64,000 bases of DNA from Rhodothermaceae bacterium. Its GTDB lineage: Bacteria > Bacteroidota > Rhodothermia > Rhodothermales > Bin80. Below the pieces are notes generated by a model. It had not been told where the DNA came from, did not search any database, and saw only the letters and a list, made by a program, of their open reading frames with translations. Below, in pieces: positions 54,726 through 58,038 of the stretch. The stretch's first letter is position 1. Each line of letters starts with the position of its first letter. The position numbers and the translations under genes are program-made. The stretch lies in NCBI GenBank assembly GCA_009838195.1, contig VXSC01000002.1, forward strand, positions 82,139 to 146,138. The letters run 5' to 3'.

Positions 54726-55154
54726 TTATTGGATGTCCAGTGAGTCAGGTAGATCGTTTCGCTGCAGATTTGGGTTGAGCAGTGGGCCGGTCAGAGGGAG
54801 ATCAAAACTTGTTAGAAAATGTGCAAGCGTAGAAAACCAGAATTCTTGTTGGAATTCAACCCACCTGTCTTCATCGGACAGATCTGTCATTTTGTGTTCT
54901 TCTATATCAAGGTAGAAACTACGCGGCCAATCAGGGAATCGGTCCTGTGCATCTTTGACGATCTGGAATGCTGCCTGAGCGGCTTCTGGAAAACTCATCT
55001 CCTGGGTTACAATCATGTAGATTGATACCGTGTTGTCAAAATTCATCCAGATTCCAGGAGATTCCGGTTTGTTGTACTCTGGAATAAAAGGGGGATTATC
55101 AGTGTGGTCCCCCATGATAACAGATGGAAATGATAAGCTGAGTGTATCTCCCAC
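54726..55154 (-). CDS. Hypothetical acidic protein
   Basis: 142-aa ORF filling the gap between tRNA-Leu and the next gene on the same strand. No recognised motif, and the start is uncertain. Confidence 0.6.
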   Translation of the reverse strand: MGDTLSLSFPSVIMGDHTDNPPFIPEYNKPESPGIWMNFDNTVSIYMIVTQEMSFPEAAQAAFQIVKDAQDRFPDWPRSFYLDIEEHKMTDLSDEDRWVEFQQEFWFSTLAHFLTSFDLPLTGPLLNPNLQRNDLPDSLDIQ

Positions 55155-55260
55155 ACATCGGCCCGTTGACGTGAGAATCCAATTGAGAAAAAGTTCTGTG
55201 TTTGATCACAACGGGCCGGTGAATCGGTCTTTACGCATTGCGAAAAGATGAAAAAAACGG

Positions 55261-55344
55261 TGCCCGGGACTGGAATCGAACCAGCACGCCCGTAAGGGCA
55301 CTGCCCCCTCAAGACAGCGCGTCTACCTATTCCGCCACCCGGGC
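55261..55344 (-). tRNA. tRNA-Leu(GAG), CCA not encoded
   Basis: GCCCGGG/CCCGGGC acceptor stem with A73, D-arm GGCGGAATAGGTAGACGC, anticodon arm CTGTC-TTGAGGG-GGCAG, long variable arm and T-loop TTCGATT. Followed by CCG and then T7. Confidence 0.96.
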
Positions 55345-55347
55345 TGA

Positions 55348-55751
55348 TGGTGATCCCGCCAGGGCTCGAACCTGGGACCCTCTGATTAACCTACCACACC
55401 GGCTTTCACCGGCCATCTGGATTCATGTTGTGGTCTGGACCATCTCTTCACCCTTCCATTTGATGGGGTAGGGTGGGCTGCGTATGGCCTCTGAGGGCTC
55501 TCTCGAATCCGCACCACGCGGAAAAGGGTCCAGAATGAGTCCCAATAACCCGGCACGGTTAACGGGAACGGACTGGATTGCCCAATTCAAGGTTGCCTGC
55601 TGATTACCCATCTATCCGCCGCATTTTTACGTGTGACGACGTAGCGACGACTTTAGGGCGTCCCAGCATACAGCAGCCTCCACTCATACAGTTTCCTGCA
55701 TGAGGCTCCATGACTTAAAGTCAGATGCTCTTCCAACTGAGCTACGGGATC
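55348..55751 (-). tRNA. tRNA-Lys(UUU) split by an intron (exon 1 55718-55751, exon 2 55348-55389)
   Basis: The joined exons give a 76-nt cloverleaf: GATCCCG/CGGGATC acceptor stem, A73, encoded CCA, GCTC/GAGC D-stem, TCTGA-CTTTTAA-TCAGA anticodon arm and CCAGG-TTCGAGC-CCTGG T-arm. Confidence 0.93.
55390..55717 (-). ncRNA. Group I intron (self-splicing ribozyme, IC3-like), 328 nt, no homing endonuclease
   Basis: Exon 1 ends in U and the intron ends in G. P1 is CUU/GAG, P2 is a GAAA-capped hairpin (55683-55704), P3 is GGCUGC/GCAGCC and P4 is UGCUG/CAGCA. Q is AAUCAGCAGG. R (UCAGAGGCCAUA) pairs with S (AAGAGAUGGUCC) to form P7. P8 is CACCC/GGGUG and P9 is a GAAA hairpin. Confidence 0.92.
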
Positions 55752-55780
55752 AGAATTTAGAGAACTAACAACCCACCAAT

Positions 55781-56212
55781 TTACGGCAAATTTTCCGAAT
55801 GCTCAATCCTTTGCTCCTGCATTTCCCAGAGTATTTTCATGGGGAAGCGAAGGATCAGTTGTCCCTTTAACTTCGAAGGATCAAAATTGATGAACCCATG
55901 CGCCAGATAAATCTCTGTTGGGAGGCAGCGCCAGAGAAATTTAATCTCCCGGTCTCCTTGTCGGTAGTCGCGTGTGATAATCATTCCAACCAGATGCTCT
56001 AGACCAGAGCCAACAAATACATCCACTCCAGAACCGTCAGAGCTTATAGTATTACGGATGAACCCATAGTCCATCGGATAAATAATATCTGGATATCGGG
56101 GATGGGGCGTTTCTCTGGGGCGATCCAGCAGGATGCCCTCGGAGAGGATTAATCTTTCCCAGCGCTCCCAGGGAAATCGGTCTTGTAGCAATAATGCATA
56201 GGCATCGGTCAT
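55781..56212 (-). CDS. Small inorganic pyrophosphatase-like protein
   Basis: DRP...HPRYP..IYPMDYGF..NT.S.DG..VDVF resembles the family I PPase core. ATGA overlap with aspS. Confidence 0.7.
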   Translation of the reverse strand: MTDAYALLLQDRFPWERWERLILSEGILLDRPRETPHPRYPDIIYPMDYGFIRNTISSDGSGVDVFVGSGLEHLVGMIITRDYRQGDREIKFLWRCLPTEIYLAHGFINFDPSKLKGQLILRFPMKILWEMQEQRIEHSENLP

Positions 56213-58038
56213 TCAGGTTCCGGAACAGACCGAATGTTTAATTCACTGAGTCGTTCAGGTTCAACCGTTGAGGGGGTGCCAGACATGGGCTCCTGTGCAC
56301 TTTGTGTTTTTGGAAATGCAATCACTTCACGGAGAGACGTTGATTGTGAAAGTAGCATGACAATCCGATCCAGCCCCATGGCGATTCCTCCATGCGGAGG
56401 GGCTCCATAACGCAGAGCTTCCAGTAAAAATCCAAATCGCTCTTCACTCTCTTCGTCGGGAATTCCCAGAGTATCGAACATCTGTTTTTGAACTTTTTGA
56501 TCATGGATACGGATTGACCCTCCTCCAATCTCCATTCCATTGAGCACGATATCATAGGCGCGGGCTCGAACATGTGCCGGATCGCTCGAAAGCAGCTCCA
56601 GATCATCTGTTTTTGGGGAGGTGAATGGATGGTGCATGGCTGAATAGCGTTTTTCCCGCTCATCCCATTGCAGCAGCGGAAATTCGGTAATCCATGCAAA
56701 CTGCCAGGAGCTCTCATCGATACAGCCAAGCTCGCGGGCCATATGCAGCCGGAGGGCTCCCATTTGCTCCTGTACCGTGGGCCATTTGCCACAAAGGATC
56801 AGCAGGAGATCTCCCGTCTTGGCCCCAGATACCTGGATTGCTTCGGTTACAAATTCCTCTGGAAGTACATGACTTTTTACAGAGCAGTTTGGAGGGGTGC
56901 CGTCGGAAGGGATTCGCACATGAATCAGGCCACCGGCTCCGATTCGTTTCCGCACCACCGTCTTATCCAGGCGATCCATATATCCTCTGCCTTTGTCGCC
57001 AAACTCTGGAATAACCAGCCCCAATACCGACCCTCCTGCAGAAAGGGCCTGATCGAATACCCGGAATCCTGAATTTTTGAACGCAGAACTGAGATTGCAT
57101 ATCTGAAGATCAAAACGCAGGTCAGGCTTGTCGGAGCCATATCTCCAGAGTGCATCTTGGTAGGTCAGCCGCGGAAAAGGGGTGGGCAGCTTAATGCCGA
57201 GAACCTCGTCCCAGAGTGCTACCATCAAGCCTTCGGTCAGGGAATAGATTGCATCCTCCGTTGCAAAGGCCATTTCCACATCAATCTGCGTGAACTCCGG
57301 TTGCCGGTCGGCACGCAGGTCCTCATCTCTGAAGCATTTAACAATCTGAACATATTTGTCCAATCCCCCGATCATCAGGAGCTGCTTATAGGTCTGTGGG
57401 CTCTGAGGAAGGGCGTAGAAGGCCCCTGGATGCACCCGGCTTGGAACCAGATAGTCGCGTGCACCTTCTGGCGTTGATTTCATGAGGGTTGGCGTTTCCA
57501 CTTCAAGGAATCCCTCTGCATCAAAATAGCGGTGGATCACCTGGTAAACCTGATGTCTCAGGATCATTTTCTGCAACAAATCCGGTCGCCTGAGATCAAG
57601 GTACCGATATCTCAGGCGCAGATCTTCAGAGGCTAGCTTCGTCTTTTGTGTGTGACTGGAGATAGAAAATGGTAAGGCCTCCGATTCGGCAAGAATACAG
57701 AGGCTCTCAACCCGAACCTCAATCCTCCCCGTTGGGAGTTTGGGATTCACGGTTTCGGGTGAGCGCAGTGCGACAAAGCCCATGACGGATATGACGTACT
57801 CGCTGCGCAGGCGGTCTGCAAGTTCATGCGCAGCGGGGTTGTCCTGAGGCGAGAACACGATTTGCGTAAGGCCATAGCGATCCCGGAGATCTACAAAAAT
57901 GACCCCTCCGAGATCACGCCGTGTATCTACCCAACCTTTTAGTACAACCTGCTCGCCTAGATGTACGTCCGAGAGCTTGCCACAGGTATGTGTTCGATCT
58001 GGATGTTGATTTGTAATGTTTTCGGAAAAGCCAGACAT
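56209..58038 (-). CDS. aspS: Aspartate--tRNA ligase
   Basis: RTHTCG, RRDLGG..FVDLRDR, TPEGARDY, LPQSPQ, CFRDEDLRADRQPEFTQID, GAD domain and GAPPHGGIAMGLDR. Confidence 0.98.
   Translation of the reverse strand: MSGFSENITNQHPDRTHTCGKLSDVHLGEQVVLKGWVDTRRDLGGVIFVDLRDRYGLTQIVFSPQDNPAAHELADRLRSEYVISVMGFVALRSPETVNPKLPTGRIEVRVESLCILAESEALPFSISSHTQKTKLASEDLRLRYRYLDLRRPDLLQKMILRHQVYQVIHRYFDAEGFLEVETPTLMKSTPEGARDYLVPSRVHPGAFYALPQSPQTYKQLLMIGGLDKYVQIVKCFRDEDLRADRQPEFTQIDVEMAFATEDAIYSLTEGLMVALWDEVLGIKLPTPFPRLTYQDALWRYGSDKPDLRFDLQICNLSSAFKNSGFRVFDQALSAGGSVLGLVIPEFGDKGRGYMDRLDKTVVRKRIGAGGLIHVRIPSDGTPPNCSVKSHVLPEEFVTEAIQVSGAKTGDLLLILCGKWPTVQEQMGALRLHMARELGCIDESSWQFAWITEFPLLQWDEREKRYSAMHHPFTSPKTDDLELLSSDPAHVRARAYDIVLNGMEIGGGSIRIHDQKVQKQMFDTLGIPDEESEERFGFLLEALRYGAPPHGGIAMGLDRIVMLLSQSTSLREVIAFPKTQSAQEPMSGTPSTVEPERLSELNIRSVPEPE

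Follow-up and report, generated by a model that had tools for sequence, protein, structure and literature searches.

The only tRNA-Lys(UUU) gene of a Rhodothermaceae genome is split by a group I intron between U34 and U35

What interrupts the anticodon of the only tRNA-Lys gene found in a Rhodothermaceae genome, and how would the interruption be removed? The locus lies in the window, by which we mean the whole 64,000-nucleotide stretch analyzed here (GenBank assembly GCA_009838195.1, contig VXSC01000002.1, positions 82,139 to 146,138 of the forward strand). On its minus strand, a 34-nt 5′ exon (55718..55751, tRNA positions 1–34, ending in C32-U33-U34) and a 42-nt 3′ exon (55348..55389, positions 35–76, with an encoded CCA at 55350–55348) can be read directly. 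Joined, they give a 76-nt tRNA with the anticodon loop CU-UUU-AA, discriminator A, the encoded CCA, the acceptor strands GAUCCCG/CGGGAUC, a D arm, the anticodon stem UCUGA/UCAGA and the T arm CCAGG/CCUGG. The 328 nt between U34 and U35 (55717–55390) were described as an insert between these two halves in a first-pass annotation made from the letters alone, and direct reading bears this out. The exons joined by script, a test proposed there, are called as a tRNA-Lys(ttt) of 76 nt, so removal of the insert would restore the host RNA; the product is 74/75 identical to an intron-less orthologue from a sister family (L031). In intron-less orthologues the sequence matching the 5′ exon abuts the 3′ exon, and the 5′ exon sequence is identical in the 22 other genus genomes aligned.

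The gene is followed after 3 nt by tRNA-Leu(GAG) (55259..55344, minus strand; found by ARAGORN and by RF00005 at 48.6 bits). This neighbor recurs in relatives, some of which have an intron-less tRNA-Lys, and is probably co-transcribed with the tRNA-Lys precursor. Upstream on the same strand lies an aspartyl-tRNA synthetase gene (56209–58038; PF00152 at 403.9 bits). A 143-residue ORF (55781–56212, minus strand) sits between it and the tRNA genes and has a sub-threshold inorganic pyrophosphatase Pfam match (23.2 bits versus a cut-off of 23.5, over 37 residues). Scanning 55150–56300 for promoters (sigma-70-type models only) and terminators returned none.

The insert matches the group I intron family RF00028. 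In a search of 701 nt (55200–55900), the model aligns over its full length (positions 1–253) to 55727–55422 with 42.1 bits and an E-value of 2.6e-9. The first-pass annotation had proposed this comparison for its group I assignment. The match is full-length, but its score stays below the gathering score of 50, and in a whole-genome search the locus reaches 27.1 bits. The low scores go along with large insertions relative to the model, in P5 (45 nt) and in P6 (87 nt). The intron (55390..55717, minus strand) has no ORF of its own, and neither of the two mechanically called ORFs within it matches Pfam. Folded alone, it reaches −126 kcal/mol (z = −3.05 compared with shuffled sequences).

We placed the helices from the RF00028 alignment and the sequence, and every pair is a standard pair (all coordinates on the minus strand). 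In P1 (55706..55720), C32-U33-U34 and intron nucleotides 1–2 (55720–55716) pair with the internal guide UGGAG (55710–55706). U34 (55718) forms a U·G wobble and immediately precedes the 5′ splice site; the conserved U·G of RF00028 aligns on this same pair. P2 (55683..55704) has 9 base pairs and a GAAA tetraloop (55695–55692). The 5′ strand of P3 (55673..55678) pairs with 55481–55476, P4 is formed by 55668–55663 with 55603–55598, and P5 by 55658–55656 with 55609–55607, topped by the P5a extension (55655–55610). The P6 region (55495..55597) consists of P6 (55597–55596 with 55496–55495), P6a (55591–55585 with 55508–55502) and a length-variable extension of 76 nt (55584–55509). The 5′ strand of P7 (GGCCAU, 55484..55489) aligns to the RF00028 P7 consensus, pairs with AUGGUC (55443–55438) and forms a pseudoknot with P3. 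The 3′ strand of P3 (55481–55476) and P8 (55474–55471 with 55453–55450) are supported by the RF00028 alignment and by both comparative alignments described below, and J8/7 (55449–55444) lies between P8 and the 3′ strand of P7. P9 (55434–55430 with 55397–55393) encloses the P9a hairpin (55413–55398), placed from alignment and sequence, with a GAAA loop at 55407–55404, and the intron ends in a terminal G (55390). The conserved GNRA loops of P2 and P9a presumably make tertiary contacts like those of other compact tRNA introns. Each element named in the first-pass annotation (the P1 U·G, P2-GAAA, P3, P4, P7, P8, P9-GAAA and the terminal G) is thus present. The core helices P3–P8 and the P3/P7 pseudoknot are complete, with 100% of their cells paired.

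The same structure can be followed through the relatives. A BLAST search against 40 of them recovered the full split gene in 23 of 23 other genomes of the genus (80–98% identity), and a split tRNA-Lys with a different middle part in one genome of the same family (G024) and in one of another family (G039). Our family alignment contains 23 sequences (the window, G024 and 22 of the 23 other genus genomes; the contig-end copies of G014 and G010 were left out). In it, 97.8% of the pair cells are paired and 19 pairs are doubly changed; 0 of 500 shuffles did as well, and sliding the partners by 1–3 columns leaves 32–41% paired. The double changes are located in P2 (6 of 9 pairs), P5a (4 pairs), P6a and the P6 extension, where compensatory pairs accompany the variation in length, and the core helices are invariant. 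A cross-phylum alignment of 15 sequences (the window, 3 genus members and 11 loci from Chloroflexota and Solirubrobacterales/Thermoleophilaceae) has 95.4% of its cells paired and 24 doubly changed pairs, among them pairs in P3, where one pair is GC, AU, UA or UG, and in P9, where one is GC or AU. In the family alignment P3 is paired in 100% of cells. Even across phyla P4, P5, P6, P7 and P8 are invariant (P7 in 23/23 family and 15/15 cross-phylum rows); these helices are therefore consistent with the model but provide no covariation evidence of their own. The U34·G wobble of P1 is retained in 23/23 family and 15/15 cross-phylum sequences, and G is the last intron base in all 26 intron-bearing relatives listed. 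Judged by the RF00028 E-value, the covariation compared with shuffles and the folding z-score, the split gene and its group I intron are beyond chance, and the intron lies in the tRNA-Lys(UUU) anticodon, between positions 34 and 35, as first proposed.

The gene is the only tRNA-Lys that we could locate in the assembly (3.0 Mb, 48 contigs, 99% complete). None of its 42 uninterrupted tRNAs is Lys(UUU) or Lys(CUU), and blastn with the Lys(UUU) and Lys(CUU) genes of relatives returned only the two exons (C1) as tRNA-Lys. As the split gene is the only one, all lysine decoding (AAA and AAG) would depend on intron removal, as far as the 48-contig assembly shows. The first-pass annotation had made the dependence of AAA decoding conditional on there being no other copy, and had expected standard annotation to overlook the gene; both points hold. 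ARAGORN with default settings misses the gene, Rfam at gathering thresholds reports only tRNA-Leu in the whole window, and the Rfam tRNA model gives a false partial fit of 16.5 bits at the locus. Among 15 Lys-type loci scanned with RF00028, 13 match at 29.8–54.1 bits, one of them above 50, and the two with the largest inserts have no match.

Two further single-copy tRNA genes of this genome, both outside the window, are interrupted in the same manner. A tRNA of initiator type, with a C1/U72 mismatch, an anticodon stem containing three G-C pairs and a CAU anticodon, is interrupted (G000:C12:189152-189492, plus strand; locus L022:1442-1782) by a group I intron that scores 55 bits with RF00028. 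ARAGORN miscalls this gene as Leu(cag) with a 268-nt intron; under group I rules we read the junction as lying after U33, with an intron of about 270 nt. We take the two other CAU tRNAs of the genome, from their appearance, to be elongator Met and Ile2. The only tRNA-Arg(UCU) gene, located between tRNA-Pro(UGG) and tRNA-Cys, is split after U36 (G000:C41:35942-36220, plus strand; locus L021:1477-1755) by a 202-nt group I intron of 60.7 bits, above the gathering score. The split initiator tRNA and the split tRNA-Arg(UCU) each occur in 37 of 38 family genomes; together with tRNA-Lys, three single-copy tRNAs of the family thus each carry a group I intron. With default tRNA finders and Rfam gathering thresholds, the genome would appear to have no tRNA-Lys, tRNA-Arg(UCU) or initiator tRNA, and studies of genome quality, codon usage or tRNA repertoire in this family would go wrong unless the split genes are recognized. 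One may ask whether the family keeps ORF-less introns in fMet, Lys(UUU) and Arg(UCU) because the ribozymes gate tRNA maturation rather than being selfish passengers, for instance by tying translation capacity to the supply of guanosine nucleotides or Mg2+; we consider this idea a long shot.

To what extent is the Lys intron shared? With the intron alone as query against 285 genomes of the order (E ≤ 1e-10), 39 genomes match. Within the window's own family (f1) it occurs in 37/37 other genomes, spanning 12 genera; the one genome (G039) of a second family (f16) also has it, and there is no match at this threshold among the 246 genomes of 25 other families. It is fixed across the whole family. 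Inside the family its identity drops from 97% to about 70%, roughly with kinship, which together with its presence in 37/37 genomes fits old vertical descent from the ancestor of the family; the window's copy was most likely inherited vertically. The Lys intron of G039 is 691 nt long and contains a 177-residue ORF (L029:157-690, minus strand) that matches PF11645, a PD-(D/E)XK endonuclease family, at 80.5 bits. This reading frame begins in the P6 loop, the site of the window's 76-nt extension, and its 3′ end overlaps the downstream ribozyme core. This homing-type endonuclease indicates that the intron lineage is, or was, mobile. We detected no endonuclease gene in the window's intron by Pfam or in the rest of the genome by tblastn. 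An endonuclease remnant in the window's intron was considered and rejected, the tblastn matches covering only the part of the ORF that overlaps the conserved ribozyme core. One member of the family has, on a separate contig, an additional stretch resembling the beginning of the Lys intron (G051:C1:50416-50526; 79% over intron positions 20–131), which may represent a second related intron or a fragment.

A wider scan of a public genome collection, of which 5 of 64 parts were covered, used an 18-nt motif common to the three introns of this genome, GGTGAAGAGANNGTCCAG, which the Lys intron also shares with Arg(CCU), fMet and Leu(UAA) introns. We estimate about 1700 such stretches in the collection and retrieved at least 120 loci (L043–L162). 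ARAGORN in intron mode places the motif inside split tRNA genes at 78 of 120 loci, and finds no split tRNA at the other 42. The tRNAs named are Arg(CCU), fMet/Met(CAU), Leu(UAA), Arg(UCU), Lys(UUU), Thr(UGU), Tyr(GUA) and others; the program often shifts the junctions and so misnames tRNAs (Lys as Asn, Arg(UCU) as Ser(GCU), fMet as Leu(CAA)). Twelve of the 120 loci are of the Lys type, ten of them called 'Asn(gtt)' and two more plainly miscalled. One 'Asn(gtt)' locus belongs to a Rhodothermales MAG with the same 328-nt intron, and the 11 others belong to Chloroflexota and Solirubrobacterales/Thermoleophilaceae. All 12 share the window's junctions, with ...ACUU preceding the intron and ...GGYAGG at the intron end followed by UUAAUC... 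in the 3′ exon. We calculated an intron-only tree from 72 sequences and 196 columns, with exons cut off and introns longer than about 400 nt left out; the sample was picked by the one shared motif, and the tree covers motif-bearing introns only. In this tree 16 Lys-type introns form an exclusive clade (support 1.0), whose sister group consists of tRNA-Arg(UCU) introns inserted after U34 (support 0.93).

The suggestion that this may be an undescribed host site is not supported: with 5 of 64 parts of the collection covered, the same lineage already occupies the same site in at least three phyla. The Lys site is common in public genomes. With the window's copy, an intron lineage that also occurs in Chloroflexota and Actinomycetota gains a branch in Rhodothermales, and the locus provides a clean example of a group I intron long fixed in an essential single-copy gene, with no new mechanism.

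Taken together, the guide, the wobble, the P7 helix and the terminal G lead us to infer guanosine splicing with exon ligation, and we are confident in reading the insert as a group I intron between U34 and U35 of this single tRNA-Lys(UUU), predicted to remove itself by the usual two-step pathway that guanosine initiates. Its precursor, which probably shares a transcript with the tRNA-Leu(GAG) 3 nt downstream, would fold so that the internal guide UGGAG pairs with exon CUU and two intron bases, the invariant wobble marking the 5′ splice site. P7 would hold the guanosine site, as homology to the model suggests. In the first step a free guanosine would cleave the precursor behind U34 (55718); in the second, the liberated 3′-OH of U34 would act on the bond that follows the terminal G (55390), the predicted 3′ splice site. 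U34 would thereby become joined to U35, yielding the anticodon UUU. That the reaction would proceed without a protein helper is an assumption on our part.

Assembled transcripts offer a view of related loci. Four sponge metatranscriptome runs (X1–X4, from two studies) contain unspliced tRNA-Lys/tRNA-Leu sequences of close relatives, which could be RNA, precursor or carried-over DNA. These contigs are up to 642 nt long and mostly 90–99% alike to the window locus, so members of the genus are present in the sponge samples. No contig of the four runs joins the exons across 55200–55900, total-RNA contigs rarely holding mature tRNAs. The only joint found in RNA contigs links 55513 to 55587 with 93 other letters between them, and corresponds to the different P6 extension of a relative. 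Loose contig ends at 55717 and 55388 belong to intron-less tRNA-Lys and tRNA-Met genes of other organisms.

Could the split gene encode another tRNA? The one-base ambiguity of its junctions is absent from the first-pass annotation. ARAGORN in intron mode (-i), which had been proposed there, does find the split tRNA with its 328-nt intron, but reports it as Asn(gtt) i(34,328), placing both junctions one base upstream. In this genome the shifted reading also has a U at −1 and a G at the intron end, and ARAGORN accepts the alternative joined product as tRNA-Asn(GUU). It would, however, leave U33 at the splice site, which pairs with A rather than G in P1, whereas the U34·G pair is the one held invariant in both alignments. 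In five species of the genus (G011, G002, G013, G020, G015) the penultimate intron base is A, and the shifted intron would end in A in these species. In G007, G009, G024 and G039 the intron starts with C, and the two sets of genomes together exclude the Asn reading, which we regard as next to impossible. Moreover, the exons are 85–99% identical to intron-less tRNA-Lys(UUU) genes and have no similarity to the genome's own tRNA-Asn, a separate Asn(GUU) gene being present and no other Lys. The discriminator of the split tRNA is A, and Lys has A73 whereas bacterial Asn has G73. In the sampled genomes, intron-less orthologues are tRNA-Lys(UUU) genes with the loop CUUUUAA in 11 other families and Lys(CUU) in a twelfth, and 2 of those fetched from other families adjoin tRNA-Leu(GAG). 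Relatives, synteny and the tRNA inventory resolve the identity as tRNA-Lys, as far as this can be read from sequence.

Given a tRNA-Lys identity, the intron might still be a ribozyme in decay, dependent on a host protein such as a maturase or chaperone or else incapable of splicing, which would leave a crippled gene or a pseudogene. The sub-gathering RF00028 score, the large insertions in P5 and P6 and the lack of an endonuclease or maturase ORF in the window's intron would all agree with such decay. Yet this is the only tRNA-Lys of a 99%-complete genome, and 38 species-level genomes of the family keep the intron with an invariant core and compensatory peripheral changes, which is not the pattern of a pseudogene; we judge decay to be unlikely. 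A different possibility is that the window's copy is still homing and reached this genome recently by horizontal transfer. The endonuclease ORF in the copy of another family (G039) and the occurrence of one intron lineage at one site in three phyla point in this direction. The window's genome has no such ORF within the intron or elsewhere, and full occupancy of the family with kinship-graded divergence speaks against a recent arrival, which appears still less probable than decay. We favor a vertically inherited group I intron in tRNA-Lys(UUU) that is predicted to splice itself.

How does this intron compare with known systems? The survey of Williams 2020 (bioRxiv 10.1101/2020.01.27.920355) raised the bacterial tRNA settings of group I introns from 4 to 21 (17 new), the four classical ones being Leu.3Ug, Arg.5Ug, fMet.2Ug and Ile2.5Ug, all of subgroup IC3. 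The word Lys does not appear in the main text of that work, the list of settings itself being carried by its Table 1 and Fig. 3. In its nomenclature, as given in the main text, our intron qualifies as 'Lys.3Ug' (tRNA-Lys, insertion after loop position 3, U at −1 and a terminal G). Our literature searches turned up no searchable text in which a bacterial tRNA-Lys(UUU) is named as the host of a group I intron. 'Group I introns' of 22–49 nt have been claimed in cyanobacterial tRNAs, Lys(CTT) included (PMC5733544); we do not accept these as prior art, such lengths being far too short for group I ribozymes.

The closest counterparts are the 11 Lys-type introns of Chloroflexota and Solirubrobacterales/Thermoleophilaceae, which form the exclusive clade with the Rhodothermales copies (support 1.0). 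The window's intron is longer than these (328 versus 238–258 nt) because of its P5a and P6 extensions. Insertion after U34 is also seen in the sister group of the Lys clade, the tRNA-Arg(UCU) introns of Gammaproteobacteria, in a different tRNA and different hosts. The introns of Azoarcus tRNA-Ile(CAU) (Ile2.5Ug) and Agrobacterium tRNA-Arg(CCU) (Arg.5Ug) likewise interrupt bacterial anticodon loops, but after position 36, as does the Arg(UCU) intron of the window's own genome, and not after 34; we take their J6/7-P7 sequence to differ from that of the Lys intron. The endonuclease ORF of G039 (PF11645, PDDEXK_5), absent from the window's intron, resembles in its setting I-Ssp6803I, the PD-(D/E)XK homing endonuclease from the tRNA-fMet intron of Synechocystis, in that both reside in a tRNA group I intron. 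The cyanobacterial and plastid tRNA-Leu(UAA) intron ('Leu.3Ug') occupies a different tRNA, and in the intron-only tree it is well separated from the Lys clade. It shares with the Lys intron the 34/35 position, the U·G and terminal-G rules and, overall, a compact fold in which GNRA loops cap P2 and P9.
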